Assembly: GCA_030390025.1 (NCBI GenBank)
Contig: CM059431.1
Location: forward strand, 103,294,001-103,358,000
From: Squalus acanthias
Taxonomy: Eukaryota
Length of the DNA: 64,000 nt
Reading direction: 5' to 3'
In this document: positions 3,269 to 62,419 of the stretch, piece by piece
Position numbering within the stretch: the first letter of the stretch is position 1
How the letters are laid out: each line of letters begins with the position of its first letter
Position numbers and translations under genes: made by a program
The notes under the pieces: generated by a model
What the model saw: only the letters and a program-made list of their open reading frames with translations
What the model was told of the DNA's origin: nothing
The model's database searches: none

Positions 3269-3269
3269 A

Positions 3270-26873: not shown

Positions 26874-27132
26874 AAGGCTTTTCACGATTTATCAGGGCAA
26901 TATGCAGCAGTTGACCACAAAGAGCGATAAGAAAAATGTATAGTTAAGGAGCTGAGTGAAGTTGTATGACTGGTAGAAGATGTATTTTGGTAACCTTCAC
27001 TACACTTGCAAAGTCATTGAACTTCTTCTGGCATTGCGAGGCAGTTCTTGGGGTAATCTTACACTCACTGCCTTTTCCAGCACTCTCTTAGGCAGCCTGC
27101 ACCAACCCTCTTCTGGTCCTTCCTTCCCCTTT

Positions 27133-27602
27133 TTCACCAGAATGTTACCAGGGATCCAAGGGTTAGATGATGAGGAGAGATTACATCAACTAGGCTTGTA
27201 TTCCCTGGAGTATAGAAAGTTCAGGGGTAATTTGAGTGAGGTTTTTAGGATGTTGAAAGGAATCGATAGGGTAGATGGAGAGAAACTTTTTCCGCTGGTG
27301 GGGGAGTCTAGGACACGGGGACATAACCTTAAAATCAGAGCCAGGCCATTTAGGAGAGACGTTAGGAAAAACGTCTTCATACAAAGGGTGGCAGAAGTGT
27401 GGAACTCCCTCCCCACAGAAAGCCGCAGACACGAGCTCAATTAATAATTTTAAATCGGAGATCGATAGATGTTTTGCGAGCCAAGGGTATGAAGGGATAT
27501 GGAGTCAAGGCGGGTGGATGGAGTTAGGATACAGATCAGCCACGATCTCATTGAATGGCGGAACAGGCTCGAGGGGCTGAATGGCCTCCTCCTGTCCCTA
27601 TG
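27133..27602 (+). mobile_element. CR1 3' fragment
   Basis: FTRMLPG..LGLYSLEYRK..RTRGHNLKI followed by the 3' UTR. Confidence 0.9.
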
Positions 27603-33274: not shown

Positions 33275-33999
33275 TAAGGTTCGGTATACACATCAAACCT
33301 CTCCTAAGTTAGAACTGGCTTCAACTTAACCATAGATGGTGCTAGAATACCAAAAAAAATATTTTTTCTGCTGTTAGAGCCTCATAAAGTTGTTAACACT
33401 GTCCCGACTGTGTAAGCCCAGCTTTATGTTTATATTTTGCCAATCAGTTTGCATTTATATAGCGCCTTTCACCACCTCAGGACATCCCAAAGCGCTTTAC
33501 AGCCAGTAAAATACTTTTGGAGTGGAGTCATTGTTGCAATGTGGGAAATGCGGCAGCCAATTTGCGCACAGCAAGCTCCCACAAACTGCAATGTGATAAT
33601 GACCAATGTGTTTTTTTTAGTGATGTTGGTTGAGGGATAAATATTGGCCCCAGGGCACTGGGGATAACTCCCCTGCTCTTCTTCCAAATAATGCCGAGGA
33701 ATCTTTTACGTCCAGCTGAGAGGGCAGACGGGGCCTCGGTTTAACGTCTCATCCAAAAGATAGGTAGAATGAATCGATGCTTTTTGTGATATACAGTGGG
33801 ATCGATTTCAATCTCGAGGGAGTTTTGGGCGGGTCAGGGATGGGCTGAGTGTGAATTCACTGGCCTGAAATTCAGGTCTGGGCTATTTTAACTCCCGGGC
33901 CTCACTTAAACTTGACTGGTGGATTTCACATCCAATCCCATTGGGAACAGGAAGCAAGCCCACTTTCCCGGTGGAATATCCAGCTATTATCACCATGGT

Positions 34000-36900
34000 A
34001 ATTTTTGATAAAGCAGTTCGGGAGCATTTAAACTAGTATGGCAGGGGGCTAGAAACCTATGTAGTGAAATAGAGGAAAGTGAAAGGCAGACAGAAATAAA
34101 TGGTAAAAGGGTGAGGAACAAAAAACAAAGGGCCAAACTAATTCATAAAAAATGTGAGCATAAAAAAAGCCTGAGGGTTTTATACCTTAATGCGAGAAGC
34201 ATCAGGAACAAGGTAGATGAATTAGCTGTGGAAATAGAGGTTAATAATTATGATCTAATTGGGATTATGGAAACATGGTTGCAGGGTGAGCAGGGCTGGG
34301 AGCTTAACATACAGGGGTATTCAGTATTTAGGAAGGATCGACAAAAAAGAAAGGGAGGAGGGGTAGCATTGCTGGTAAAAGAGGGGATAAATGCAATTGA
34401 AAGGAAGGATATTAACTCAGTTAATACAGAATCTATATGGGTGGAGCTAAGAAATAGCGAGGGGCGAAAAACATTAATAGGAGTGGTATATAGGCCTCCA
34501 AATAGTAAAATAGAGGTTGGGGAGGGCATCACGAGGGAAATTAGAGAAGCATGCAATAAGAGCACAGCTGTCATCATAGGTGACTTTAACTTACATATAG
34601 ATTGGAATAGCCTAATCAGTAAAAATAATGAGGAGGAGGAATTCCTTGAGTGTTTAAGGGATGGTTATCTGGATCAATATGTCGAGGAACCAACTCGGGA
34701 ACAGGCTATATTGGACTGGGTACTGTGCAATGAGAAGGGACTAATTAGTAATCTTGTTGTACGGGGACCCTTGGGTCAGAGCGATCATAACATGATCGAT
34801 TTCTCACTCGAAATGGAGAGCGAAGAAATTGACTCAGAGACTAAGGTCCTGAATTTAAACAAGGGGAATTATGATGCCATTAGACGGGAACTGAGTAGGT
34901 CTGATTGGACAACGTTCCTGGGAGGACTGGAGGTAGATAAACAATGGCAAGCATTTAAAGATAGAATGACAAAATTGCAAAAATTGTTTATACCAATCTG
35001 GCATAAAAGGAAATCTAAAAAGGTGACTCAACCGTGGATAACAGGGGAAATTAGAGACAGCATAAAATCCAAAGATAGGGCGTATAAAATAGCCAAAAAA
35101 AGCGCCAGAGCGGAAGATTGGGAACAGTTTAAGATAGAGCAAAGGAGGACAAAGGGCTTAATCAAGAGGGGCAAAATAGCTTACGAAAGCAAGCTGGCGG
35201 AAAATATAAAAACTAACTCCAAAAGCTTTTATAAGTATATCAAGAGGAAAAGACTGGTGAAAACCAAAGTTGGTCCATTGCAGTCAGATACGGGGGAATA
35301 TATAACGGGAAATAAGGAAATGGCAGACCAACTAAATGCATACTTTGGGTCAGTCTTTACGAAGGAAGACACAAAAAACCTCCCTGGGATATCGGGAAAG
35401 ATAGGGACATTGGCAAAGGAGGAACTGACGCAAATCAATATCTCTAAGGATATGGTGTTAAGGAAGCTAAAGGGATTGAAGGCGGACAAATCCCCAGGGC
35501 CTGATAACATGCATCCTAGGGTACTGAAGGAGGTGGCCCTAGAGATAGCGGATGCACTAAGTATGATTTTTCAGAATTCATTAGACTCGGGAACAGTGCC
35601 CATGGATTGGAGGGTAGCTAACGTTACCCCACTATTCAAAAAGGGGGGTAGGGAAAAAGCAGGTAATTACAGACCTGTAAGCCTTACATCAGTTGTGGGC
35701 AAAATGCTGGAGTCCATCATTAAGGATGAAATAGCGGAGCACTTAGCAAATGGGGACAGGATAGGACAGAGTCAACATGGATTTACAAAGGGTAAATCGT
35801 GCTTGACTAATCTATTGGAATTTTTTGAGGGAGTAACTGGTAAAATAGATGGGGGAGAGCCAGTAGATGTGGTGTACCTGGACTTCCAAAAGGCCTTCGA
35901 TAAGGTCCCACATAAAAGATTAGCATGGAAAATTGAATCTCATGGGATAAAAGGGAAAGTATTGACGTGGATAGAGAACTGGCTGTCAGATAGAAAACAG
36001 AGAGTTGGAATAAACGGCTCATTTTCTGAATGGCAGGCAGTAACAAGTGGGGTACCACAGGGATCTGTCCTGGGTCCCCAGCTGTTCACAATTTACATTA
36101 ATGACCTGGATCAGGGAGTCGGATGCAGCATTTCCAAATTTGCAGACGACACTAAACTAGGAGGGGGGGTGGGCTCAGAGGAGGAGACCAGGAAGCTCCA
36201 GAGCGATTTGGACAGACTGGGTGATTGGGCGGATAAATGGCAGATGCACTATAATGTGGACAAGTGCGAAGTTATCCACCTTGGGTGCAGGAACGGGAGG
36301 GCAAATTATTATTTAAATGGCAATAAATTGGGAGAGGGGGAAGTACAGAGAGACCTGGGTGTTCTTGTACACCAGTCACTGAAGGCGAGCATGCAGGTGC
36401 AACAGGCGGTCAAGAAGGCAAACGGTATGCTGGCCTTCATAGCAAAAGGGTTGGAATACAGGAACAGGGATACCTTGCTGCAGCTGTACAGGGCACTGGT
36501 GAGACCACACCTCGAGTACTGTGTACAGTTTTGGTCGCCTCATCTGAGGAAAGATGTTCTTGCCATGGAGGGGGTGCAGCGGCGATTCACCAGGCTGATA
36601 CCAGGAATGGCGGGATTGACCTATGAGGAGAGACTATGTAGTTTAGGGATGTACACACTGGAGTTTAGAAGATTGAGAGGGGACCTCATAGAAGTGTATA
36701 AAATTCTGACAGGTCTAGACAGACTAGATGCAGAAGGAATGTTTCCCTTGGCGGGTGAGAACAGAACTAGAGGACATAATTTAAGGATAAGGGCTAAACC
36801 ATTTAGGACAGAAATGAGGGGGAATTTCTTCACTCAGAGGGTGGTGAACCTATGGAACTCATTGCCACAGAGGGCAGTGTATGCCAGCTCATTAAATATA

Positions 36901-37078
36901 TTTAAGAGGGAATTAGATATTTTTCCACAGGCAAAAGGGGTTAAGGGTTACGGAGAGAAGGCGGGGACGGGATACTGAATTGGAGGATCAGCCATGATCT
37001 CATTAAATGGCGGAGCAGGCTCGAAGGGCCGGATGGCCTACTCCTGCTCCTATCTTCTATGTATCTATGTATCTATGT
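34000..37078 (+). mobile_element. CR1 LINE truncated at the end of ORF1, with complete ORF2, 3' UTR and (CTATGTAT) tail
   Basis: ORF1 end AVREHLN* at 34034-34036, followed by an uninterrupted ORF2. Confidence 0.96.
34027..36978 (+). CDS. CR1 ORF2: APE endonuclease and reverse transcriptase, uninterrupted
   Basis: Motifs YLNARS, GDFN, SDHN, QHGF, PQGSVLGP, FADD. The frame is open from 34027 and has no ATG before the first endonuclease motif. Confidence 0.93.
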   Translation, partial: FKLVWQGARNLCSEIEESERQTEINGKRVRNKKQRAKLIHKKCEHKKSLRVLYLNARSIRNKVDELAVEIEVNNYDLIGIMETWLQGEQGWELNIQGYSVFRKDRQKRKGGGVALLVKEGINAIERKDINSVNTESIWVELRNSEGRKTLIGVVYRPPNSKIEVGEGITREIREACNKSTAVIIGDFNLHIDWNSLISKNNEEEEFLECLRDGYLDQYVEEPTREQAILDWVLCNEKGLISNLVVRGPLGQSDHNMIDFSLEMESEEIDSETKVLNLNKGNYDAIRRELSRSDWTTFLGGLEVDKQWQAFKDRMTKLQKLFIPIWHKRKSKKVTQPWITGEIRDSIKSKDRAYKIAKKSARAEDWEQFKIEQRRTKGLIKRGKIAYESKLAENIKTNSKSFYKYIKRKRLVKTKVGPLQSDTGEYITGNKEMADQLNAYFGSVFTKEDTKNLPGISGKIGTLAKEELTQINISKDMVLRKLKGLKADKSPGPDNMHPRVLKEVALEIADALSMIFQNSLDSGTVPMDWRVANVTPLFKKGGREKAGNYRPVSLTSVVGKMLESIIKDEIAEHLANGDRIGQSQHGFTKGKSCLTNLLEFFEGVTGKIDGGEPVDVVYLDFQKAFDKVPHKRLAWKIESHGIKGKVLTWIENWLSDRKQRVGINGSFSEWQAVTSGVPQGSVLGPQLFTIYINDLDQGVGCSISKFADDTKLGGGVGSEEETRKLQSDLDRLGDWADKWQMHYNVDKCEVIHLGCRNGRANYYLNGNKLGEGEVQRDLGVLVHQSLKASMQVQQAVKKANGMLAFIAKGLEYRNRDTLLQLYRALVRPHLEYCVQFWSPHLRKDVLAMEGVQRRFTRLIPGMAGLTYEERLCSLGMYTLEFRRLRGDLIEVYKILTGLDRLDAEGMFPLAGENRTRGHNLRIRAKPFRTEMRGNFFTQRVVNLWNSLPQRAVYASSLNIFKRELDIFPQAKGVKGYGEKAGTGY

Positions 37079-37112
37079 ACGTGTTGAACCAGAAACCACT
37101 GCAGGTAACATC

Positions 37113-37285
37113 ATAATAATAATAATAAGAAGGAGAATAAGAAGGAGGAAGAGGAGGAGGAAGAGGAGGAAGAAGCGGAGGAGGAAGAGGAGGAAGAAAA
37201 GGAGGAGGAGGGAGAAGAGGAGAAGGAGGAGGCGGTGGAAGAGGAGGAGGAGGAAGAGGAGCAGGAAGAGGAGCAGCAAGAGGAG

Positions 37286-37326
<41 letters not shown>

Positions 37327-37474
37327 GGAGGAAGAAGAGGAAGAAGAAGAGGAAGAGAAGGAAGAAAATGAGGAGCAGGAAGAAGAGGAGGAGGTGGAGG
37401 AGGAAGAGAAGGAGGAGGAAGGGGAGGAGGAGGAAGAGGAAGAGGAGGAGGAGGAAGAGGAGCAGGAAGAGGAG

Positions 37475-37509
<35 letters not shown>

Positions 37510-37513
37510 GGAA
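37113..37513. repeat. (AAT)n followed by ~385 bp (GAG/GAA)n polypurine tract, the expanded tail of the adjacent L2
   Basis: Directly visible. It abuts AACTTGTATTTATATAGCGCC, the L2 terminus on the minus strand. Confidence 0.95.
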
Positions 37514-38050
37514 GAACTTGTATTTATATAGCGCCTTTAACATAGTAAAACATTGCAAGGTGCTTCACAGGAGCGTTATCAAACAAAATATGACACTGAG
37601 CCAAACAAGGAGATACTAGGACAGGTGACCAAAAGCTTGGTCAAAGAGGTAGGTTTTAAGGAGCGTCTTAAAGGAGGAGAGAGAGGTAGTGAGGCAGAGA
37701 GGTTTAGGGAGGGAATTCCAGAGCTTGTGACCTTGGCAGCTGAAGGCACGGCCACCAATGGTGGAGCAATTTTAAAACAGGGAATGCGCAAGAGGCCAGA
37801 ATTGGAGGAGTGCAGCGATCTCAGAGGATATGTAGGACCGGACGATGTTACAGAGATAGGGAGGGGGGCGAGGCCATGGAGGGATTTGAAAACAAGGATG
37901 CGAATTTAAAAAAGAAAGTAGATGTTCCCGGACCGGGAGCCAATGTAGGTCAGCGAATCACAGGGGTGATGTGTGAACGGGACTTGGTGAGAGTTTGCCG
38001 TGGGACAGCGGAGTTTTGGTTGAGCTCAGGTTTACGGAGGGTGCAACATT
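37514..38050 (-). mobile_element. L2-type 3' end
   Basis: Colinear with 20490-20915 and 24264-24680. Confidence 0.88.
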
Positions 38051-40384: not shown

Positions 40385-42529
40385 TGAAGGGATAATTACA
40401 AGTCCTAGCCCTTTCAGACTACCCCAGATCAGGCGGATTCCCCAGACGTTTACCTTCAACTAAAGTTTGCGGTAGCCGGATCCCATAAGACGCTTAATTG
40501 GGTCTAAAGGTCAGACTACCTCTCCCTAAAGGAAAGAAACGGTCTGAAGATGTTACCGTCCTCCGGATAGTACTTTTAATAAGTTTAACTAGACTGCAAC
40601 CTTCTGGATATTATAAGGGTCCGGAATACCCCCCAGAATTCTGCAACTCCTTTGAGTGTACAGAAATTGAGTTCGCAAGATGATACAGAAATGCTCTTTG
40701 AGATTATTCTAAAAATATATAGATTTATTACAGAACCGACATTCAGTTAAGATTTATTATGACAATCGCAACTTTAATCGTTCAAAATACAAATAGCTTA
40801 CATTATCTTATTCTCAGATCTTTATTCTCAAATCTTAACTTCGTTACATTTCCACACTTCTACTTATTTCTTAATCCAGAATATCCACCAAAATCAAATA
40901 AGAGTACCTTGATCCCCGAGACTCAAAAGTTAAAAACTTACAGAGAATGTCTGTTAAGTTGAGAAACGCTTGCCTTCTCAGCGACTTCTGCTTTTCTGTT
41001 TGAAAAGTTCTATGTTTTATACTCTTTTTTGGGTGGTTTATCCTTTGAAGTTTTCCTGATGATGTAAGCTTAATTGTATCATATCATCTCCCTGGTGGCC
41101 CAGCTGGGCCCCGGTTCGTGCTGCACAAGGCCCCTTCCCTTTAATAAGGGAAGGCCTGCAGTACCGTGGCGCGACGTGCCGGCGAGCGTGGCGCTGTTGC
41201 ACGTAACACAGCGATATTGGGCTGGAGCGCCCCAAGAGGGAGGGGGAGTGCTTCCAGTAGCGCCCCGCCTCCTGCTTGGGGCGCTACCACCAATTTCGGG
41301 CGCGGGGAGGGTACAGAGGAGATTTACTAGGATGGTACCAGGGATGAAAGACTTCAGTTACGTGGACATACTGGGGTTGTTCTCCTTAGTGCAGAGAAGG
41401 TTAAGGGGAGATTTGATAGAGATGTTCAAAATCATGAAGGGTTTTGATAGAGTAAACAAGGAGAAACTGTTTCCAGTGGCAGGAGGGTCGGTAACCAGAG
41501 GACACAGATTGAAGGTAAAAGAACCAGAGGCGACATGAGGAAAAAAATTGACACAGCTAGTTAGGATCTGGAATGCACTGCTTGAAAGGATGGTGGAAGC
41601 AGATTCAGTAACAACTTTCAAAAGGGAATTAGATAAATACTTGAAGGGGAAAAAATTTGCAAGGTTATGGGGAAAGAGCAGGGGAGTGGGACTAATTGAT
41701 TAGCTCTTTGAAAGAGCCGGGACAGGTGTGATGGGCTGAATGGCCTCCTTCTGTACTGTATCATTCTTTGCTGACTTTGTTCTATTGTTTATTGATATCT
41801 CTGTTGAATGCTTTCTATCTTGTGTCCTGTTTAGGTGTTTCCAAAACCATCATAAACACAATGACAGCAATGGTTTCTGTTTGATGCAATTCTTATCGAA
41901 GTCTTTCTATTCAATTCTAATACTACTTTAACTGGTCTTTATCAGACGTTGTGACTCCGTGGTATTCCAAGTTTAATACATAAACAATGTAATTGCTTGG
42001 TGCATCCATTGATGTCATTTTCAAAGTCTTTCTGTAGGTATCATATTTACAATATGTAAATTGAAAACACTTTAACTCAATGTTTACTTGTTTTCTAGCT
42101 ATCTCAATTGGTTGCATATTTAATCGTGTTTCCTGTCTTTAAGTTTAACATAAAACTATTTTACGACAGGTATTTCTTACTTGATGTCATTTTTTCAGAG
42201 GCACTTGTTTTTTTTTAATGTTCTGTGCACCTGTTCGACGTGTTAGATTATATCACTTTACTTGGGTCATTCCATTGTTTTGATTCCAATGTCCAGACGC
42301 TCTGGAAGCAAACCTTTGCTTTATCAATAGGGCTTGTTTCTTGGTCAATAACCCATTCCCATTTCAAAGCTTGTGAATAACTGATCTTTATCTCAGAAGC
42401 CTGTATTGTATCGGCAGCCTGTGTCGCCGAGGCTTTCAGACTTTTAAACCCAATATGTCACTTATTAATAATTTCAGAAATCTGTTTTTAGTATCGTGTA
42501 TTTTTCTGAATCCTGGCTCTTCCTTCACA
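40385..42529 (-). mobile_element. Solo LTR copy 1 (~1.46 kb plus ~0.7 kb nested insert)
   Basis: TGAAGGGA..TTCCTTCACA (TG..CA with short inverted ends), TSD TCTA. Minus-strand TATAAAA at 41021-41015 and AATAAA at 40729-40724. Colinear with 54813-56273. Confidence 0.85.
41085..41770 (+). mobile_element. Chimeric insert: inverted Harbinger-MITE fragment fused to a CR1 3' end
   Basis: 41095-41305 resembles the reverse complement of about 56420-56640. 41306-41770 is a CR1 C-terminus and UTR. Absent from LTR copy 2. Confidence 0.8.
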
Positions 42530-43635: not shown

Positions 43636-45050
43636 CCATCGAATCATAGAAATTTACAGCACAGAAGGAGGCCATTCAGCCCATCGTGTCTGCGCCGGTC
43701 AAAAACAAGCTATCCAGCCTAATCCCACTTTCCAGCTTTTGGTCCGTAGCCCTGTAGGTTACGGCACTTCAAGTGCATATCCAAGTACTTTTTAAATGTG
43801 ATGAGGGTTTCTGCCTCTACCACCCTTTCAGGCAGTGAGTTCCAGACCCCCACCACCCTCTGGGTGAAAAAAGTTCTCCTCAACTCCCCTCTAATCCTTC
43901 TACCAATTACTTTAAATCTATGCCCTTGGTTATTGACCTCTCTGCTAAGGGAAATAGGTCCTTCCTAACCACTCTATCTAGGCCCCTCATAACTTTATAC
44001 CCCTCAATTAAGTCTCCCCTCAGCCTCCTCTGTTCCAAAGAAAACAACCTCAGCCTATCCAATCTTTCCTCATAGCTAAAATTCTCCAGTCCTGGCAACA
44101 TCCTCGTAAATTGCCTCTGTACCCTCTCTAGTGCATCACAACTTTCCTGTAATGTGGTGACCAGAACTGCACGCAGTATTCTAGCTGCAGCCTAACTAGT
44201 GTTTTATACAGTTCTAACATAACCTCTCTGGTCTTGCATTCGATGCCTCAGCTAATAAAGGAAAGTATCTCGTATGCCTTCTTAACCACCTTATCTACTT
44301 GTCCTGCTACCTTCAGGGATCTATGGACATGCACTCCAAGGTCCCTCTGTTCCTCTACATTTCTCAGTATCCTACATTTATTGTGTATTCCCTTGCCTTG
44401 TCAGCCCTCCCCAAATGCATTACCTCACACTTCTCCGGATTGAATTCCATTTGCCACTTTTCTGGCCACCTGACCAGTCCATTGATATCTTCCTGCAGTC
44501 TACAGCTATCTTCCTCACTATCAACCACACGGCCAATTTTTGTATCATCTGCAAACTTCTTAATCATGCCCCTTACATTGAAGTCTAAATCATTGATATA
44601 CACCACAAAAAGCAGTGGACCTAGTACTGAGCCCTGTGGAACCCCACTGCAAACAGCTTTCCAGTCACAAAAACACCCGTCGACCATTACCCTTTGGTTC
44701 CTGCCACTGAGCCAATTTTGCCATTTTCCCTTGGATCCCATGGGCTTTTACTTTTTTGACCAACCTGCCATGTGGGACCTTGTCAAAGGCCTTGCTAAAA
44801 TCCATGTAGACTACATCGAATGCACTACCCTCATCGACCCTCCTTGTTACCTCCTCAAAAAATTCAATCACATTAGTCAGACATGACCTTCCCTTATAAA
44901 TCCATGCTGACTGTCCTTGATTATTCCGTGCCTTTCTAAATGAAGATTTAACCTGTCCCTCAGAATTTTTTCCATTAATTTTCCCACCTCCGAGGTTCAG
45001 CTGACTGGCCTGTAATTACTTGGTCTATCCCTTTCTCCCTTTTTAAACAA
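43636..45050 (-). mobile_element. 5'-truncated CR1 inserted in a Deu SINE
   Basis: Minus ORFs 44665, 44364 (FADD) and 43907. SINE halves lie on both sides, with CAATTAA repeated at the junctions. Confidence 0.92.
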
Positions 45051-47757: not shown

Positions 47758-48118
47758 GGGGGAAAAATTAGGTCGCGCCCCGTTTGGGGCGCAAATATCG
47801 TCTGGACGCAAAAATTAGCGCCTGGCGCTAATTATCGCCACTGACTGGAAACTTCACTTTTACCGCCCCGGGAGGTGAGTGGAGCGCTAAATCAGGCGCT
47901 GCACACCTGTCTTAAGGCGCAAAGGCCGAGCAGTGAGGCGCTAACTCAGCGCGCGAGTGCAGCGCAGGTGCTGCCAGTTAGCGAGGGAACACAGACACAC
48001 TGGCGCCGGCCAGTTCTTAAAGGGGGGGGGGGGGAATCTTGCTCCCCAGCCACACCCTGCTCATTGCAGCCTTGAATCTCGGCCTGGAGAGACCTGTGAA
48101 TCCATTTTGCTGCCAAGG

Positions 48119-49938
48119 ATGGAGAGGGTGAGAGAACGAGCTCAGCGCTTCACCGAGCAGGCCTTGGATGCTCTGGTTGGCGCGGTAGAGCGCAGAAGAT
48201 CTATACTTTTCCCTGAGAGTGGCAGGAGGCCTTTGCCACGCGAGTACAGAAGAGTGTGGAGGGAGGTGGCTCAGAGCGTCTCCTCCAGGAGCATGGTGCC
48301 CAGGACCCATGTTCAATGCCGCAAAAAGTTCAACGACCTCACTCGGGTCGTCAGGGTGAGTGACTTTTTCTCAATACCTCTCCATCCCTCCATCTCAACC
48401 TCACTCTATGGCCAGAGGGTCTTAAAACCCCAATGCACAACACTCATCCAACACCTATGGCCCTTTCATGAAACACACACACACAATCCACACTTTGCAT
48501 ACAGTAAAGGCTATTCACCTATGGGAGGCACATCAGGCAAGACCATGGCTGTATACAGTAAGGGCTATTCACCTATGGGAGGCACATCAGGCAAGACCAT
48601 GGCTGTATATTTACTCAGATGCTGTCCTTTTTCTTGCAGGCCAAGCTGGCGCATAATAGGAGACAGCAGCAACGGACAGGTGGAGGGCGGCCTCAGCTGC
48701 AAACCCTCAGCGATCTTGAGGAGCGCGTCCACAGGATTGTGGCAAGCCGGGTGATCGGTCCCGTCGCCACTGGAGACGCCGACCCCGTTCTGGACAGCAA
48801 TGGGAAGGTCATCACCTTTTTGTCCTCTGTCCTTCCACTTGTCCCTCACAACACCAGCCTTTGACACTTTCAATCCAACTTACTAACTCGCTGCACTTAT
48901 TCCTCCCTTACTGCCACCCTGTCCTCACGCTAAAGCCACTCTTGTACCTCCCTGCTTTCAGATGGTGATTCACCAGCTGAGGAGACGGGCCCTGAAGCTG
49001 CCAGTGGGAGTGAAGCTGCAGCCGAGGAGGAAGAGGGAGCCGAAGCATCAGTGCCACCCTCTCCCGAGGAAGTCCATGCCGACACTGGGAACACGCCTTC
49101 CCTGGAGGGGAGCAGGGGGAAAGGGTCTGATGAGGGTGAAGCTCCAGGACCCAGCGGGCTGCAGCAACGCCATGGGGGTAGGGAAGAAAGGGGGCCTTCT
49201 CCCCAGAGGGAGAGTATGCCAGCGAGTCCTACTGCAATGGACGCAGAGGAGGAGCGGCTGATCGCAGAAATGAACACCCAGGCGGTGGGCATGCACACTG
49301 AGCTGATGGGTGCAGTGGGAAGGGTGCCCGAATGCATTGAGTCACTGGCAAGGAGTGTGGAGCACTTCGCTGTAGCACAGGCGGATGCCACACTAAAGCT
49401 TAGTGCTGCAATTCAGTCACTGACTGCCATGATCCCATCTCTGACTGCTCTCATGCAGACTCAGATTGAGGCCACGCGAGCACTGACTGCTGCCATCCTC
49501 GATGGTTCGTTCACATTTCCCCGAGGCTCTCACCGCGCCGCAGCAGGCCGGCAATCTGTGCTCCAGCAGATTGCTCCGGATGCTGAAGTGCTGCCCCGTG
49601 GGAGTGCCAGTGTGTCGGTCGAGCAGGGAGTTGCTGTCCTCTCTCACGATGACAGCATTCCTGCTGCCAACACTGTCACTTCTCCACTGCACTTGCCACC
49701 GCCTGTAGGACAGACTGCTGCCGCCCATGCAGAGTTGGTGCAGTCTGCAGCCGGGCCCTCCAGGCCCAGAACTGGTCGAGGCCGTCCTTCAGGGGCATCT
49801 GCAGTGTCAGGGTCTGACCATCAGCAGCCTTCCACCAGCCTTGCTGCAGCCACTGAGGTCCCATTACGGAGGAGCAGTAGGGTTAGAAGGGGGGAAGTGC
49901 GCAAGGGAAGGAGATCACCCTCGAAGGGCAAAAAGTAG
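48119..49938 (+). CDS. Harbinger Myb/SANT-like protein; predicted exons 48119-48355, 48640-48802, 48962-49938
   Basis: MERVRERAQRFTEQALDALV..WREVAQSV..RTHVQCRKKFNDL | AKLAHNRRQQQRTGGG | acidic, helical and basic C-terminus. Exon phases fit, but the second donor reads GGAAGG instead of GT. Confidence 0.8.
48499..48606. repeat. 2 x 54 bp tandem duplication in Myb intron 1
   Basis: ATACAGTAA(A/G)GGCTATTCACC..CATGGCTGT occurs twice with one mismatch. Confidence 0.95.
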
Positions 49939-50250
49939 GAGGTGTGACAAAATGCTGGTCATTTTTTTATTAAAGGCCGAGGTTCGTGGTCCAACTTTTG
50001 TTTAGTGTTTTGGACATTATCTCCAGGTTGTGAGAACCAGTTATGTTAATGACTGTTTTTTAGTGTTTATTTCTATGAGTTTGTCATGAGGAAATGACAC
50101 ACACAGAGTTTGTAAAATAAATAAGTTTTTGTATTCAAAATATACATGTTTGGTGTTTGGAATCATTGGTGCCTTGGCCGACTTAGGGGTTGCGTGCTGG
50201 GTTCATTGATGTTGTTAGCAATGGCAGAAGCCATTTCCACAGCAGGGGCC

Positions 50251-51411
50251 CTAGAAGCGGCTTGCTATCAGCCGTTGACGGACGGCCCTTGCAGTTTGAC
50301 CATTGTGGGCCGCCCTCCCGCCTTGGTGCTGCTGATGATCATCCTCCTCGTCCTCTTCCTCCTCTTCCTCCTCCTCCTCTGGTGGTGCTCCAAGGCCTGG
50401 TGGCATTGGCTGGGTCCTGACGATTGCCATGTTATGCAACATGCAGCACACAACTACGAAGTTGGATACTCGCTCAGGCGAGTACTGCAGGGCTCCTCCA
50501 GAATGGTCGAGACAGCGGAACCGTTGCTTCAGCACGCCGATTGTGCGCTCAATGATGTTCCTGGTAGCTTGATGGCTCTCATTGTACCGCAGCTCAGCAG
50601 GGGTGTTGGGTGTACGGAGCGGTGTCATCAGCCAGGTGCTCAATGCATACCCCTTGTCCCCGAGAAGCCAACCAACTGGCTGATGCGGTGCCTCGAAAAG
50701 TTCTGCCACAGTAGTCTGGCGCAGGATAAAAGCATCGTGGCAGCTGCCAGGATAGTGGGCATTGACAGTGAGTATCAGCTGTCTGTGGTCACAGACCAAC
50801 TGAACATTCAAGGAATGGAACCCCTTTCTGTTCCGGAAATCCTCGGCATTCTCATGTGGAGCACGCAAAGCCACATGCGTGCAGTCAATGGCGCCCTGCA
50901 CCATGGGGAAGCCCGCTATCCTTGCAAAGCCCAGAGCGCGGTCACGCTGCTTGTCTGGGGTCATGGGGAAAGAGATGAACTCTCGTCTCCTTTTAAAGAG
51001 GGCATTTGTGACCTGCCGGATGCAGCAATGCACCGCGAACTGGGAGATATTGGCGAGGTCCCCAGCAGCAGCTTGAAATGAGCCAGTAGCATAGAAGTTG
51101 AGAGCCACTGTGACCTTCACTGCCACCGACAGAGACGTCCTGGACCTCAGTTGAGGCTGCAGATCTGGCTGCAGCAGGTGGCAGAGCTCAGTGACCACCT
51201 CCTTGCTGAATCGCAGCCTTCGCAAACACAGCTCCTCAGACAAATGAATGTAGGAGAGCTGTTCACGATATACCCTGGGAGGGTAAGCTCTCCTGTACAG
51301 ACGCCTGTTGGCCCTCCTCCGTCTGGCCATCATTGCCACTCTCTCTCTGCGTCTCTGTGTCCTCCGATTCAGCTGGAGCAGGACGACGCCCCCATTCAGT
51401 GCAGCCCCCAT
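50251..51411 (-). CDS. Harbinger DDE transposase (HARBI1-like), 386 aa, intact
   Basis: GAIDCTHV, NRKGFHSLNVQLVCD, PGSCHDA, LGDKGY, RNIIERTIGVLKQRFRCL, CCMLHN. First ATG at 51411. Confidence 0.96.
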   Translation of the reverse strand: MGAALNGGVVLLQLNRRTQRRRERVAMMARRRRANRRLYRRAYPPRVYREQLSYIHLSEELCLRRLRFSKEVVTELCHLLQPDLQPQLRSRTSLSVAVKVTVALNFYATGSFQAAAGDLANISQFAVHCCIRQVTNALFKRRREFISFPMTPDKQRDRALGFARIAGFPMVQGAIDCTHVALRAPHENAEDFRNRKGFHSLNVQLVCDHRQLILTVNAHYPGSCHDAFILRQTTVAELFEAPHQPVGWLLGDKGYALSTWLMTPLRTPNTPAELRYNESHQATRNIIERTIGVLKQRFRCLDHSGGALQYSPERVSNFVVVCCMLHNMAIVRTQPMPPGLGAPPEEEEEEEEEDEEDDHQQHQGGRAAHNGQTARAVRQRLIASRF

Positions 51412-52409
51412 AGTCTCTTTGCAAGCAAAGTTATGAAGGACAGCAACCAAAGTACCAGCGAAGTTAGGATCAGTAGGCAAAACTACCTCACAAAGCGTTG
51501 ACTCAATGCAGAAGTCTCTCTTTCTCTCTCTCCGAATCTCTCTCTCTCTCTCTCAGAACGAGTGGTGCAAAAATGTCAACCACAGAAAAAGACAGGAAGA
51601 GGCCCCCTTTAAATAGCGCCCCCCCCAGCCCCACAGCGATTGATAGCGTTCCAGTCTTCCGGTCGTTGGATGCGCCAGGCGGTAAGGCAGGGGGCGCCAC
51701 TCAATTTCCGCTCCGGGGCGCCACAAGGGCGTTGCACCATGGAATGACGTCACAATCTGCGCGCGCAGGTGGTCGCAGCGGTAAAGTTTAGCGCCGCCGC
51801 ACAATGTCTAGTTAAGTTCCCGAGCGGCGCAAACATCGCTGCGCCCGGGCGCTAGCGGCTTTGCGCCCCATTAGCGCCCTCTTAAGGCGCTAACGGGAGG
51901 CGCAACCAACTGAATTTTTCCCCCTATGACTCTTATGTAGGAATGATTTATTATTGTAACATTAATGATATTTCCAGCATCTCAGCTGGTGTCCTGAACA
52001 AAATGGCAGGTAACACTGGTGCCACATAAATGCCAGGGAACGGCTATCTGGTGTGGTGGGTGCTGACTCACTGCGTTGCCATCAAGAGGAACTGACTGGT
52101 TCTTGACTGGGGCAGTGATCACATCATATAGAAGGGAAGTGGCCTTATAGAGAATGCTTGGTCCGCGTGATCTCCTGGGCTGGTTTCGATCGCCTGAGGG
52201 GGTCGGAGAGGAATTATCCGAGTATTTTTTCCCCTTATTGGCCCTGGATTTTTTGTCTCTCCCAGTAAATTACATGGCTGGGGGAGGGGTGGGGGTGGGC
52301 GATAGAGGGGAGGAGGAGTGGGAAGTCTTTATTTATGATGCTCCAGCCATCAGGAGGTGTGGGGCAGGCTTGCCGGACTAGCTAGTCTTTTCCTACCAGT
52401 CAATTTAGC

Positions 52410-56340: not shown

Positions 56341-57101
56341 GGGGTAAAAATTGAGTCGCGCCCCATTTGGGGCGCTAACCTCGCCGGGGCGTGACTTTTA
56401 GCGCCCCGAAAAAATTAGCGGCCCCGCGCCGGAACTTCAGTGGTTGCGCCCCAAGAGGGAAGCGGGGCGCAACTGGAAGCAGCCCGCATCCCTCTTGGGG
56501 CGCTGCGAGTGAATATCCTGGCGCTACGTGCCGCAGCGCCACGCGCTGCGGCACGTCGCGCCGCGGTATTGCAGGCCTTCCTCCCCTTCTTAAAGGGGAG
56601 GGACCCTGCGCAGCGCGAACCGGGGCCCAGCTGGGCCCCCAGGGATCGGGAGTGCCGGCAAAAGAGCCCGGCACTCAAGAGAAGTGCCGGGCTCTTGGAG
56701 CGCAGCCGGCACTTCACGGTGGGGGGGCTTCACGGGGGCCGGGGGCAGGTGCTGGCAGGCGGCCAGCAACAAAAATGGCCGCCTGCCACCTCCGCTTTAA
56801 ATATCGCCGCCCCGGCCGCACGTACGCCTCCCTGAACCCGTCGGACATAGCGTCTGGCGGTAAATCAGGGGGCGCGACTGAAGATCACGGCCGGGGCGCG
56901 AGCGGGGTGCTGCGCACGGCGATGACGTCATCGCCGGCGGCGCAGCGCCACAGGGCGCTACCGGCTGCCGCCGCCGCTAACCTCCCACTAAATTTTTCGG
57001 GAGGCGTGGGCGGCGCTGCGCCCGGGCGTTAGCTGCTTTACGCCCCATTAGCGCCCTCTTAAGGCGCTAACGGGAGGCGCAAGCAGCTGAATTTTTCCCC
57101 C
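56341..57101. mobile_element. GC/CpG-rich Harbinger MITE sharing ends with the 47758 element
   Basis: GGGGTAAAAATT..AATTTTTCCCCC, TSD ATA. The last ~60 bp are nearly identical to 51860-51924. Confidence 0.92.
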
Positions 57102-57173
57102 ATAGAGTTATACAGCACGGATAGAGGCCCTTCGGCCCATCGTGTCCGCGCCGGCCATCAAGCCCTGTCTAAT

Positions 57174-60088
57174 CTAATCCCATATTCCAGCATTTGGTCC
57201 GTAGCCTTGTATGCTATGGCATTTCAAGTGCTCATCCAAATGCTTCTTGAATGTTGTGAGGGTTCCTGCCTCCACAACCCTTTCAGGCAGTGAGTTCCAG
57301 ACTCCAACCACCCTCTGGGTGAAAAAGTTCTTTCTCAAATCCCTTCTAAACCTCCCGCCCTTTACCTTGAATCGATGCCCCCTTGTTATAGACCCCTCTA
57401 CTAAGGAAAAAAGCTCCTTAATATCCATCCTATCTATGCCCCTCATAATTTTGTACACCTCAATCATGTCCCCCCTCAGCCTCCTCTGCTCCAAGGAAAA
57501 CAAACCCAATCTGCCCAGTCTCTCTTCATAGCTGAAGCACTCCAGCCCGGGTAACATTCTGGTGAATCTCCTCTGCACCCTCTCCAAAGCTATCACATCC
57601 TTCCTGTAGTGTGGCGACCAGAACTGCACACAGTATTCCAGATGTGGCCTAACCAGTGTTTTATACAGCTCCATCATAACCTCCTTGCTCTTATATTCTA
57701 TGCCTCGGCTAATGAATGCAAGTATCCCATATGCCTTTTTTACCACCTTATCCACCTGTTCCGCCGCCTTCAGGGATCTGTGTACTTGCACACCAAGATC
57801 CCTCTGACCCTCCGTCTTGCCTTGGGTCTTACCATTCATTGTGTATTCCCTTGCCTTGTTAGTCCCTCCAAAGTGCATCACCTTGCACTTTTCCGGATTA
57901 AATTCCATTTGCCACTGTTCCGCCCATCTGACCAACCCATCTATATCGTCCTGCAGACTGAGGCTACCCTCCTCGCTATTTACCACCCTACCAATTTTTG
58001 AAACATCCGCGAACTTACTGATCATACCTTTTACATTCATATCCAAGTCGTTAATGTAGACCACAAACAGCAAGGGACCCAGCACCGATCCCTGTGGTAC
58101 CCCACTGGCCACAGGCTTCCAGTCACAAAAACAACCTTCGACCATCACCCTCTGCCTTCTGCCACTGAGCCAGTTTTGTATCCAATGTGCCAAGGCACCC
58201 TGGATTCCATGGGCTCTTACCTTCTTGACCAGTCTCCTGTGCGGGACTTTATCGAAGGCCTTACTGAAATCCATGTATACCACATCCACTGCGTTACCCT
58301 CATCCACACACCTAGTCACCCCCTCAAAAAATTCAATCAAATTAGTCAGACATGATCTTCCCTTGACAAAGCCATGTTGGCTAATCCTGATTAATCCTTG
58401 CCTCTCCAAGTGGAGACTAATTTTGTCCCTCAGAATTTTTTCCAATAATTTTCCTACCACTGATGTTAGGCTCACTGGCCTGTAGTTCCCCGATTTTTCC
58501 CTACTCCCTTTCTTGAATAATGGTACTACATTAGCGGTTCTCCAGTCCTCTGGCACATCCCCTGTGGCCAGAAAGGTTCTGAATATATGTGTTAGAGCCC
58601 CCGCAATCTCCTCCTTTGCCTCACACAGCAGCCTGGGATACATTTCGTCCGGACCTGGGGATTTATCCATTTTTAGACCTGCTAAAACCGCCAATACCTC
58701 CTCCCTCTCGATGTTAAAATGTTCGAGTATATCACAGTCCCCCTGCCCTAATTTTATGTCTCCATAGTGAAAACAGATGCAAAAAATTCATTTAGAACCC
58801 CACCTACATCTTCCGGCTCCACACACAGATTGCCACTTTTGTCCCTAATGGGCCCTATTTTTTCCCTAGTTATCCTCTTACCCTTAATATACTTATAAAA
58901 CATCTTAGGATTTTCCTTTATTTTGCTCGCCAGTGTTATTTCATGGCCCCTCCTTGATCTCCTAATTTCTTTTTTAAGTATCTCCCTGCACTTTTTGTAC
59001 TCCTCTAGGGCTTCCTCCGTCTTTAGCATTTTGTATCTGCCAAAAGCCCTCCTTTTTTTCCTGATCCATTCTCGTATATCCCCCGACATCCAAGGTTCCC
59101 TGGGGTTTTTGGAACCACCCTTGACCTTTACGGGAACATGCTGCCATTGTATGATCTCAATCTCCCTTCTGAAAGAATCCCATTGCTCCGATGCGGATTT
59201 TCCTACAAGCAGCTGATCCCAGTCCATTTTGGCCAGATCCTGCCTTATCCTATTAAAATCGGCCTTCCCCCAATTTAGAACCTTTATTTCCGGCCCATCC
59301 CTGTCCTTTTCCATGACCACCTTAAATCTCACCGTATTATGGTCACTGTCACCAAAGTGCCCACCTACTAGCACTTCTTCCACTTGGCCGGCCACATTCC
59401 CTAGAATTAGGTCCAGTACCGCCCCCTCTCTTGTAAGACTTTCTACATGCTGGCTCAAAAAGCTCTCCTGGATGCACTTTAAGAATTTTGAACCCTCTAA
59501 TCCTTTCACACTCTGACTATCCCAGTTAATATTGGGGAAGTTGAAATCCCCCATTATTATTACCCTATTATTTGCACATTTCTCTGAGATTTGCCTACAT
59601 ATCTGTTCCTCTATCTCCCCCTGACTGTTTGGGGGCCTACAGTATGCTCCCAGCAAAGTGCTTGCCCCCTTTTTGTTTTTAAGCTCCACCCATATAGCCT
59701 CATTGGAGGAACCTGCTAATATATCATCCTTCCTTATGGCAGTAATTGATTCTTTAATTAATATTGCGACCCCCCCTCCTCTTATACCTCCCCCTCTGTC
59801 TCGCCTGAAGATTCTGTACCCCGGAATATTGAGCTGCCAGTCTTGCCCCTCCCTCAACCATGTCTCCATGATAGCAACAATATCATACTCCCATGTGTTT
59901 ATCAACACCTTCAGTTCATCCACCTTATTCGCTAGACTCCTTGCATTAAAATAGATGCCTTCCAGCCTTGCTCTTACATGTTTGCCCTGTCTTCCAAGCT
60001 GACTTGTTTTTTTCTCTATATTTGACTGTACATCACCCCCTATTGTAGCTCCACTCTGTATCCCATCCCCCTGCCAAGTTAGTTTAAA
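57174..60088 (-). pseudogene. CR1 ORF2 (endonuclease and RT), frame-disrupted near 58750, FADD changed to FADV
   Basis: YFNARS, GDFN, SDHN, QHGF, PQGSVLGP. Confidence 0.93.
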
Positions 60089-61029
60089 CCCCCCCCAACA
60101 GTGCTAGCAAACCTCCCCGCAAGGATATTTGTCCCGCTCTGGTTCAGATGCAAACCGTCCGACTTGTACAAGTCCCACCTTCCCCAGAAGCAGGCTCAGT
60201 GATCCAGGAAACTAAAACCCTCCCTCCTGCACCAACTCTTTAGCCACGCATTCATCTGTTCTATCCTCCTATTCCTATACTCACTAGCACGTGGCACTGG
60301 GAGTAATCCAGAGATTACAACCTTTGAGGTCCTGCTCTTTAATCTGCTGCCTAGCTCCCTAAATTCTTGATGCAGGACCTCATCCCCCTTCCTACCTATG
60401 TCGTTGGTCCCAATGTGAACCACGACCTCTGCCTGCTCACCCTCCCCCTTAAGAATGCCCTGTAGCCGCTCAGTGACATCCATGACCCTGGCCCCAGGGA
60501 GGCAACCAACCATCCTGGAGTCACGTTTACTGCCACAGAAACGCCTATCTGTTCCCCTTACGATAGAATACCCTACCACTATTGCTCTCCCACTCTTTTT
60601 CCTCCCTTTCTGAGCAGCAGAAGCAACCCTGGTGCCAGGAAGTTGGCTGCTGCCGCTCTCCCCTGGTGAGTCATCCCCCTCAACAGTATCCAAATCGGTA
60701 TACCTGTTTGAAAGGGGGTTGACCGCAGGGGTCCCCTGTACTTCCTGCCTGCCTCTGCTGCTCCGCCTGATGGTCACCCATTTCCCTTCTGCCTGTGCAG
60801 CCCTACCCTGCGGCGTGACCAACTCGCTAAACGTGTTATCCACGACCCTCTCAGCATCGCGTATGCTCCAAAACTCATCCACCCGCAGCTCTAGCGCCGC
60901 AATGCGGTCTACAAGTAGCTGCAGCTGGATGCATTTCTCGCACACATGGTCCCCAGGGACACTGGCAGCGTCCCTAAATTCCCACATGGAGCAAGAGGAG
61001 CATAACACGGGGCTGATCTCACCTGCCAT
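60079..61029 (-). pseudogene. CR1 ORF1: zinc-finger/leucine-zipper plus SGNH esterase-like domain, premature TGA at 60198-60196
   Basis: CSSC..CEKC, IVVG(Y)SIVR and HIGTND. After the stop the frame continues ..DGLHLNQSG..GGGLN*. Confidence 0.92.
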
Positions 61030-61257
61030 GACCTAATCCTTTAATTAAATAAAAAATGTATTCAATACCCCAGTTACAGATATACTCTAGGGTGCTTTAT
61101 TTACCAACTGTCCCCACTACACCACAGAGACCCTAGAAATTTAACACCACAGAATTTAAGCTTAAAAAGAGAGAAATACTCACCAACCAATCACTTACCT
61201 GCTTTTTGGTGACGTCACACTTCGATTATTTTTCCCTCCGAGTTCGGAGACTGGTAC

Positions 61258-61462
61258 GCCTTACCTGGTCTCTGGAGCCTTTTATAGGCCCACTGCCGCC
61301 GCTGAAACTCCCGCCAACGCTCTGAGGCCTTACCTGGTCTCTGGAGCCTTTTATAGTTTTATAGGCCCACTGCCGCCGCTGAAACTCCCGCAGACGCTCT
61401 GAGGCCTTACCTGGTCTCTGGAGCCTTTTATAGGCCCACTGCCGCCGCTGAAACACCCGCCG
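61258..61462 (-). repeat. Three ~60-70 bp tandem monomers at the CR1 5' end
   Basis: Minus unit CAGCGGCGGCAGTGGGCCTATAAAAGGCTCCAGAGACCAGGTAAGG. Confidence 0.93.
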
Positions 61463-62419
61463 ACGGGAAAATGGGCACGTGTCACTTACACCCAAATTTA
61501 CTCAACCTTTTTTGCGCCGAAAATCACCAATACTCTGTTGTGTTGTGTAGGAAACACGGCAGCCAATTTGCACACAGCAAGCTCCCACAAACAGCAAAGT
61601 GATAATGACCAGTTCATCTATTTTAAGCGATGTTGGTTGAGGGATAAATATTGGCCCAGGACACCGGGGAGAACTTCCCAGCTCTTCCCCAAATAGTGCA
61701 TCCACCTGAGAGAGCAGACGGGGTCTCGGTTTAACATCTCATCCGAAAGACGGCACCTCCGACAGAGCAGCGCTCCCTCAGCACTGTACTGGGAGCGTCA
61801 GCCTAGATTTTTGTGCTCACGTCTCTGGAGTGGGACTCAGTGTAAAACAATCAGGATCTGAGGAAAAGCGCCAAACTGACACCATCTTCTTTCTTTAAGG
61901 TGCTCTTTATGCATAAAAATTTGCCATCATTCTTGCAAATTAGACACAGCAGATGCAATCGCGGAAATGTTTCAATTTTTAAAATGCAAATCATTCCGCT
62001 GCCACTAAGGTGCTTTCAAAGTCACATTTTAGGTCTCAGTGAGGAGAAATCAAAAATCACCATGAAACGCCAGAATTGTGACTGTTGTGACTAAAGCTTT
62101 GGGCACAAATTGAGAGCCCGTTCAGAACTGGCGTGAAGTAACTCAGTTCGTGCGAGCCACAATTTTTGCCTGGGGGTGGGTGAGACGGGGGGAGGGGGTG
62201 GAGCGAGGTAAACACACGGCAGAGGATTCCAGGTGGATGGTTCACAGAATAGGCGCAACAAGCCGCGGAAATTTGGGCGCAGTGTGAAAACGGGCACGTG
62301 TCACTTACACCCAAATTTACTCAACCTTTTTTGCACCGAAAATCACCAATACTCCGTTGTGTTGATGCACGTATTCCGGAAAGTGAATCACTCATCAGGG
62401 AAAGACTGGCTGAGCACTT

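Follow-up and report, generated by a model that had tools for sequence, protein, structure and literature searches.

A slippery heptamer and G-tract conserved at the ORF1–ORF2 junction of CR1 retrotransposons: a probable site of programmed −1 frameshifting

A 64,000-nucleotide (nt) stretch of the Squalus acanthias genome (assembly GCA_030390025.1, contig CM059431.1, positions 103,294,001 to 103,358,000; here called the window) carries, on its minus strand and over about 57101–61465, a full-length copy of a CR1 retrotransposon, which we refer to as the 60 kb copy. Here we describe the junction between its two open reading frames (ORFs), a candidate site of programmed −1 ribosomal frameshifting. 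By its coding content the element is a CR1 long interspersed nuclear element (LINE) of the esterase-ORF1 type, resident in a cartilaginous-fish genome. ORF1 encodes N-terminal cysteine pairs resembling a zinc finger, a long zipper helix and an SGNH esterase, as judged from Pfam, an alignment and a structural model of its relative P0001. It matches Pfam Lipase_GDSL_2 (E 3.4e-10) and the ‘ORF1-encoded protein’ of PDB entry 4c1b (E 2.2e-38), while ORF2 matches Exo_endo_phos (E 1.5e-14) and RVT_1 (E 1e-31). A short 3′ tail with small repeats is a hallmark of CR1; the 8-nt tail repeat is clear only in a second copy, near 34 kb, and the other hallmarks seen are the lack of long terminal repeats (LTRs) and the 5′ truncation of copies. 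The same two ORFs, with cysteine pairs, helix, esterase, apurinic/apyrimidinic (AP) endonuclease and reverse transcriptase, make up vertebrate CR1 (subgroup 7, ORF1 type IVB; PMC4120745). No anatomical difference from the vertebrate esterase type was found, and what we add is the route into ORF2.

Read along the minus strand, the last codons of ORF1 are GGT TTA AAC TAA, as a first-pass annotation of this DNA had described, and the heptamer was found at the position it had given. The two final codons and the preceding T form U_UUA_AAC, a heptamer of the pattern X_XXY_YYZ lying in the zero frame of ORF1. The −1 frame from 60088 then runs for 55 codons, with neither a stop nor a Met, through the motif GIYFNARS, also as annotated, and in the 60 kb copy it is open over 60103–58754. 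This copy had been called full-length, which it is, but it is broken by a premature TGA 37 codons ahead of the heptamer and by a break in the ORF2 frame near 58760–58787. Because of these two lesions it cannot itself make a fusion of the ORF1 and ORF2 proteins (ORF1p and ORF2p). Its family is young, with 99–100% identity over the junction among the 40 of 5176 candidates that were scored; of 30 family copies, 14 have ORF1 intact, 8 have ORF2 open over the stretch compared and 2 have both.

The second CR1 copy in the window, on the plus strand, belongs to another subfamily. It is cut about 30 nt upstream of the heptamer, ORF1 having an EHLN* end in other copies of its family, and its ORF2 is uninterrupted to 36978. 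The sequence TTTAAACTA stands at both junctions and occurs exactly twice in the window (34027, plus strand; 60088, minus strand). So does TGGCAGGGGG (34039, plus strand; 60076, minus strand). The annotation had placed it three bases beyond the stop, but only two bases separate the stop from TGG. The 60 kb junction had also been presented as an independent replicate of the 34 kb one. This went too far: the two are homologous sites in two CR1 subfamilies, and what they share reflects common descent, so that evidence for selection has to come from a comparison of many lineages. The junction is covered by 16 copies from the 34 kb family, and three of these (L032, L037 and L046) are cut at most about 30 nt upstream of the heptamer, two of them at nearly the identical base; the query favoured such copies.

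Table 1. Coordinates of the CR1 features in the window.
Feature	Position	Strand	Remark
5′ untranslated region, 60 kb copy	61030..61465	−	12/26 aligned family copies end at 61465
Tandem repeat in 5′ untranslated region, 77 nt, two copies	61280–61433	−	
ORF1, 316 codons + stop	60079..61029	−	interrupted in the 60 kb copy
Premature ORF1 stop TGA, specific to the 60 kb copy	60196..60198	−	TGG in 28/30 family copies
Slippery heptamer U_UUA_AAC, final ORF1 codons Leu-Asn	60082..60088	−	
ORF1 stop codon TAA, abutting the heptamer	60079..60081	−	
Conserved G-tract, candidate stimulator	60062..60074	−	profile of 26 representatives, wobble test
Start-less −1-frame linker, 45 codons, heptamer to endonuclease motif YFNARS	59954..60088	−	
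ORF2 body	57174..59953	−	AP endonuclease ~59950–59339, reverse transcriptase ~58496–57816
3′ untranslated tail	57101..57173	−	end approximate, read from sequence
Second CR1 (34 kb copy), other subfamily, 5′-truncated	33997..37078	+	ends approximate
Junction of the 34 kb copy	heptamer 34027–34033, TAG 34034–34036, G5 34044–34048	+	

A six-residue ORF1 motif upstream of the junction gave 19,950 matches in the 3.7-Gb genome, against 421 for a reversed control. Loci for comparison were the 30 best genome matches of the 60 kb family, the 20 best of the 34 kb family, an unbiased set of 50 picked blind to the junction from the first 100 listed places with the ORF1 motif, and 68 in public contigs, found with an alignment of tetrapod ORF1s. 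The end of ORF1 was located by a profile without the last alignment columns, and the best heptamer match within 14 nt was then taken; the junction anchors lay mostly at one common offset. At this first pass the exact heptamer was present in 35 of the 49 copies that could be anchored among the 50 unbiased ones, and in 18 of the 25 public-contig copies that reach the junction. For the codon counts, which rest on these sampled copies, copies of the shark genome were sorted manually into 13 lineages with the help of a tree and of clustering, the two window families contributing only 8 and 7 copies. A further 22 public-contig copies, bird-like by ORF1 sequence alone, were counted singly. Copies with deletions, insertions or no anchor were left out (L055, L065, L077, L083, L096, L116, L122 and L151). 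Over the 240 nt upstream of the junction, mean identity was 0.61 within each group and 0.41 between genome lineages and bird-like copies.

The Leu codon of the heptamer was TTA in all 13 genome lineages and in all 22 bird-like copies. At control Leu codons of the same ORF1s, TTA was found in 3/13 and 0/7 (DGxHL) and in 0/11 and 1/11 (NxWL), and its background share of Leu codons is 13–17% in four ORFs of the window. The base ahead of the Leu codon was T in 12 of the 13 lineages, the exception being a tie in a two-copy lineage, and in 22 of 22 bird-like copies. This T is the third base of codons for six amino acids (Gly, Ala, His, Thr, Ser and Pro). The Asn codon was AAC in 12/13 lineages and 18/22 bird-like copies; AAT was never a lineage majority, and wherever AAC was absent a single or paired copy had a codon for another residue or a stop than Asn. 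Of the control Asn codons, one was mostly AAT (9/11). The stop that follows was TAA in ten lineages and TAG in three, and among the bird-like copies TAG in 15, TAA in 3, TGA in 2 and TGG in 2.

Beyond the stop lies a conserved G-tract, which was profiled in 26 representatives chosen as cleaner copies (13 lineages and 13 public-contig copies). Counting from the heptamer, it consists of G at +8 (20/26), G5 at +11 to +15 (24, 24, 24, 25 and 24) and G3 at +18 to +20 (22, 23 and 22). In the ORF2 frame, positions +8, +11, +14 and +20 fall on wobble bases, with G in 20, 24, 25 and 22 of the 26, compared with 222/676 for third bases elsewhere in the linker. The amino acids encoded there vary, the W position of WQG being also M, L, K, S, D, C or A, and the Q position also K, G, L and others. 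At linker codon 5, the Q codon, 45 lineage pairs showed 33, 16 and 0 differences at codon positions 1, 2 and 3, whereas endonuclease codons had the normal third-position excess. With wobble bases fixed and the encoded residues variable, conservation of the tract is at the level of nucleotides. The reading of the junction as a selected RNA signal, made in the first-pass annotation, is thus supported by third positions fixed at both the slip site and the G-tract. The outcome that would have spoken against it, conservation accounted for by the LN* and WQG peptides with third positions left free, is not what the counts gave, and WQG itself is not conserved. Judged from these codons, the heptamer junction is selected at the RNA level. 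The G-runs flanking the heptamer often gain bases, upstream in L062, L067, L072, L078 and L086 and downstream in L052, L057, L059, L085 and L087.

The linker that connects the heptamer to the endonuclease preserves the −1 frame. In 10 of 11 lineage majorities the distance is divisible by three, at lengths of 111, 135, 135, 150, 156, 165, 174, 192, 213 and 285 nt. The chance of ten distinct in-frame lengths is about 5e-5 if each is one free indel, a figure that ignores shared ancestry. The exception, lineage D1 (208 nt), has copies differing by one G in a G-run, and its exact matches genome-wide comprise 524 of the in-frame form versus 77 of the longer form. The −1 frame was free of stops in 9/11 lineage majorities, C1 having one stop and D1 being out of frame, and the other frames had 2–12 stops each. 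Residues of the linker change freely, with differences spread over all codon positions, unlike in the endonuclease. By this measure the linker looks like a flexible tether that is translated. In lineages A, B and E no Met precedes the endonuclease motif: the first Met is at codon 178 (in 21/30 copies), 80 and 166, respectively, against motif positions of 45, 52 and 45, and codon 178 of family A is deep within the endonuclease domain. In A and B the −1 frame is moreover closed by a stop five codons upstream.

The LN ending was also seen in proteins. Among 106 DGxH-bearing ORF1 proteins it was present in 95, the hosts being cartilaginous fish, frogs, turtles, lizards, a snake and birds; sharks and rays supplied the closest named ORF1 relatives, and the wider set is from cartilaginous fish, amphibians, reptiles and birds. 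In the predicted structure of P0001 the last helix ends at residue 311, and residues 313–315 have a predicted local distance difference test score below 50, weak evidence that the ORF1 fold does not need the terminal LN. A wider search added 66 proteins with the motif, of which 25 end in LN, 8 in QGN, 2 in SN, 1 in KN and 1 in LK; 14 extend more than 34 residues beyond the motif (two of these also end in LN), and the others vary. The distant esterase ORF1s P0219, P0228, P0232, P0245, P0248, P0253, P0262, P0275 and P0256 end in QGN (eight) or KN (one), the dipeptides of two other strong slippery heptamers, as judged at the protein level. A QGN-ending protein matched the shark genome at only 34–43%. 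The ORF1 search for other hosts gave no match in viral contigs, plasmids or phages and one weak match in genome contigs. Two CR1 ORF1-like proteins named as Pseudomonas and Klebsiella hydrolases (P0013 and P0122) are probably vertebrate DNA in bacterial records. Longer fused proteins were represented by two chimeric gene models among 3042 candidates, which is no evidence either way; the gene models P0038, P0174 and P0191 run from ORF1 into the −1 linker.

We consider it highly probable that U_UUA_AAC directs programmed −1 ribosomal frameshifting, with an ORF1p–ORF2p fusion as its product. For mammalian ribosomes this heptamer is among the most shift-prone (PMC5009743). Ribosomes would translate ORF1 of a bicistronic CR1 RNA, and the majority would stop after Leu-Asn and release ORF1p. 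A minority would slip back by one base, tRNA-Leu moving from UUA to UUU and tRNA-Asn from AAC to AAA, thereby avoiding the stop and continuing via the flexible linker to translate the endonuclease and reverse transcriptase. A Gag-Pol-like fusion would result, joined in the 60 kb family as ...GGLN-LTWQGDG.... Such a fusion would set a low ratio of ORF2p to ORF1p and could tether the enzyme to an ORF1p particle.

Either the stop or the G-run had been suggested as the stimulator, and both are plausible from the sequence. We lean towards the G-tract at +8 to +20 as the pause signal, with a weak quadruplex or a bound protein as its means of action; the pause is perhaps helped by ribosomes terminating slowly at the stop next to the heptamer, a contribution we hold more doubtful. 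A two-tier quadruplex, sought as four G-tracts that begin 5–12 nt past the heptamer, is possible in 15 of the 26 representatives, versus 7% in the background, and a three-tier one in none (0/26). In synthetic reporters, a quadruplex 6–8 nt past U_UUA_AAC yielded frameshifting of about 7%, a value that fell with fewer tiers (PMC3919603). The G-tract could also have a different role in the RNA, for example in packaging or in binding a protein. Folds 3′ of the heptamer were no better than those of shuffled sequences in either window copy, and a stable conserved stem-loop was not found there, no dedicated pseudoknot search having been made. Long-range pairing of the G-tract with a C-rich stretch about 230 nt upstream was tried and rejected: this stretch was the top partner in only 1/26, with no common register, and pairing was also poor in the D lineages. 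Some bird-like copies (L101, L109, L127 and L140) have a stem-loop at about +25 to +50 that is absent from the shark-genome lineages.

Several points weigh against programmed frameshifting at the junction. Frame geometry and sequence conservation are shown, whereas the slip, the fusion product and its purpose are inferred. A conserved hairpin was not found 3′ of the heptamer (z between −2.0 and +2.0 for the 26 representatives), and an Rfam scan of 59700–61600 returned nothing above threshold, with one chance match at E 0.98. The G5 core follows a spacer of 10 nt, where 5–8 nt is usual (PMC3919603). GGG is common at control Gly codons of ORF1 (8/13, 7/7, 10/13 and 4/7), on a background of 33–46%, and because of this the argument is carried by the flanking non-Gly codons. 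The Asn position is the weakest part of the codon test, AAC being usual at one control Asn codon as well (10/11). The lineages share ancestry, so binomial figures overstate significance, and a single assembly supplied 17 of the 22 bird-like copies. In two of the three copies of lineage C1 (L063 and L069), linker codon 5 is a stop. Finally, AUG codons occur in the linker of 7/10 in-frame lineage majorities, at codons 3 to 91, and two bases past the stop in 8/22 bird-like copies. As to the C1 stop, it may reflect decay or a non-autonomous subfamily.

These AUG codons would suit termination–reinitiation, in which the ribosome would restart at an AUG or near-cognate codon just past the ORF1 stop and the conserved bases would be a reinitiation signal. 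Reinitiation is known for SART1, at UAAUG (PMC3708506), and has been proposed for L1, and the codon two bases past the stop in the 22 bird-like copies is ATG in the eight just mentioned, TTG in 5 and GTG in 1. In all 13 genome lineages, however, this codon is TGG, AAG, AAA, TGT or AGT. An AUG at codons 3–4 after the heptamer was found in 1/13 genome lineages, compared with 8/22 (codon 4) and 1/22 (codon 3) of the bird-like copies, and an AUG overlapping or adjoining the ORF1 stop in the manner of SART1 was not found as the rule at these junctions. The AUG positions scatter, and the linker ahead of them stays in frame, while A, B and E lack an AUG before the endonuclease motif altogether. Nor does reinitiation need a run of three T and three A in a slippery register. 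Reinitiation may play a part in certain lineages, but it cannot be general, and we regard it as a very unlikely account of the junction.

The remaining explanations fare still worse. That peptide constraint and shared ancestry alone produced the pattern, the LN end and a WQG-like motif being selected as protein, would suit the invariance of Leu-Asn in both alignments and the frequency of GGG among Gly codons of CR1 elements noted above. It is largely refuted by synonymous positions, which do not vary at the junction but do so at control codons, and the distribution of differences at linker codon 5 is the reverse of protein constraint; selection on the start-less −1 peptide would itself require entry into that frame. 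We give this explanation almost no credence. It is about as improbable that the frame is restored in RNA or DNA, by polymerase slippage in the G-runs or by indel copies with a fused ORF serving as source elements. Five of seven copies of lineage A2 do have a longer upstream G-run, 77 of 601 exact matches to D1 have a run of 8 where the others have 7, and a few copies have open frames of 563–748 amino acids over the ORF1 match (in genome G000, C5:30951605, C1:178249035 and C1302:11351), probably fused by an indel. But the upstream G-run is absent in lineages B and D and in bird-like copies, the fixed heptamer would be unexplained, and 29 of the 30 young family-A copies keep the exact heptamer, which means that their source element had the two-frame layout. 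Least credible of all is splicing of ORF1 or a leader to ORF2, with the junction as branch point and acceptor (CTAAC...CAG/G). The 60 kb family has CTAAC seven bases before CAG/G, and G-runs can be splicing elements. There is no pyrimidine tract, the distance is too short, CAG is replaced by AAG, GGG, ATG, TTG or CCA in other lineages, and TTA and the preceding T are left unexplained. Contigs of three of four runs are collinear across the junction, and splice ends are absent from all eight listed joints, which is weak evidence because the RNA nature of the runs is only a guess.

Programmed frameshifting at the CR1 junction would resemble that of infectious bronchitis virus and of gag-pol, in which a structural ORF ends in the same register and the enzyme ORF lies in the −1 frame; infectious bronchitis virus is named with U_UUA_AAC itself (PMC5009743). 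It would differ from this virus, from retroviruses and from LTR retrotransposons in that its host is a non-LTR element and in that no stimulator resembling a hairpin or pseudoknot was detected at 5–8 nt, the junction having instead an adjacent stop and the purine-rich G-tract. We know of no protein that binds this tract. In PRRSV, the virus of porcine reproductive and respiratory syndrome, a C-rich motif has a spacing of about 10 nt. PRRSV, with nsp1beta and PCBP, and the synthetic quadruplex reporters (PMC3919603) likewise place a short motif, not a stem, after the slip site, although the PRRSV motif is C-rich and that of CR1 is G-rich. Other LINEs face the same problem of making a second protein from one RNA at a low level, and do so by UAAUG reinitiation in SART1, unconventional initiation in L1 and 2A peptides in the CR1/L2 clade. 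These yield a separate ORF2p, whereas a fusion is predicted here. Among related cases, HeT-A, which has no reverse transcriptase, frameshifts within gag, and L1 is thought to use unusual initiation (PMC5009743).

No report of CR1 frameshifting was found in the full-text literature that could be searched, three older papers being outside its reach, and the heptamer, its conservation and the G-tract appeared in no searchable text. In the accessible parts of PMC11835228, PMC4255032, PMC3708506, PMC3905857, PMC8665684 and PMC4120745 a programmed frameshift was not found for CR1, and ‘CR1’ was not found in those of PMC5009743. It is quite possible that frameshifting was mentioned in passing earlier, in a 1997 paper on turtle CR1 or in Repbase entries. 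The turtle paper reportedly described overlapping ORFs.

Further features of the window concern the two CR1 copies and their surroundings. Each 77-nt repeat of the 60 kb copy contains a TATAAAA-like motif on the element's strand, possibly an internal promoter. A long purine-rich simple repeat (37065–37564) directly follows the 3′ end of the 34 kb copy. Additional CR1-like ORF2 fragments, recognized by eye from translations, lie at 3206–5183, 17362–18992, 26977–27444, 41074–41538 and 44218–44886. At 47945–51552 are convergent ORFs, again read by eye, for a Myb/SANT-like protein (plus strand) and a nuclease-like protein (50251–51552, minus strand), presumably a Harbinger-type DNA transposon; related fragments are at 2661–3257, 7713–8165 and 30943–32412.

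How ORF2 of LINEs is translated has been called an open question (PMC3894237, PMC3708506), and answers exist only for a few elements. If the frameshift is real, the active CR1 enzyme would be a fusion with an esterase, and the ORF2 starts now annotated would be incorrect. The junction would offer a short and directly testable cassette with an apparently unstructured stimulator, and CR1 may be exposed to host factors that act on viral frameshifting. More speculatively, and in our view rather improbably, a frameshift at X_XXA_AAC plus stop could be ancestral across animal LINEs of the esterase-ORF1 type, with that of vertebrate CR1 stimulated by a G-tract and not by a stem. This conjecture starts from the ORF1 endings LN, QGN and KN, which would correspond to the three most shift-prone heptamers. 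A natural G-tract stimulator was anticipated but not known according to a 2016 review (PMC5009743), and CR1 accounts for 11.8% of chicken model chromosomes (PMC11835228); on the wider conjecture, such a stimulator would be present in a repeat that ranks among the most abundant of vertebrates other than mammals. For the family itself, frameshifting at this junction would mean that CR1 follows a Gag-Pol strategy resembling that of retroviruses, retained from sharks to birds.

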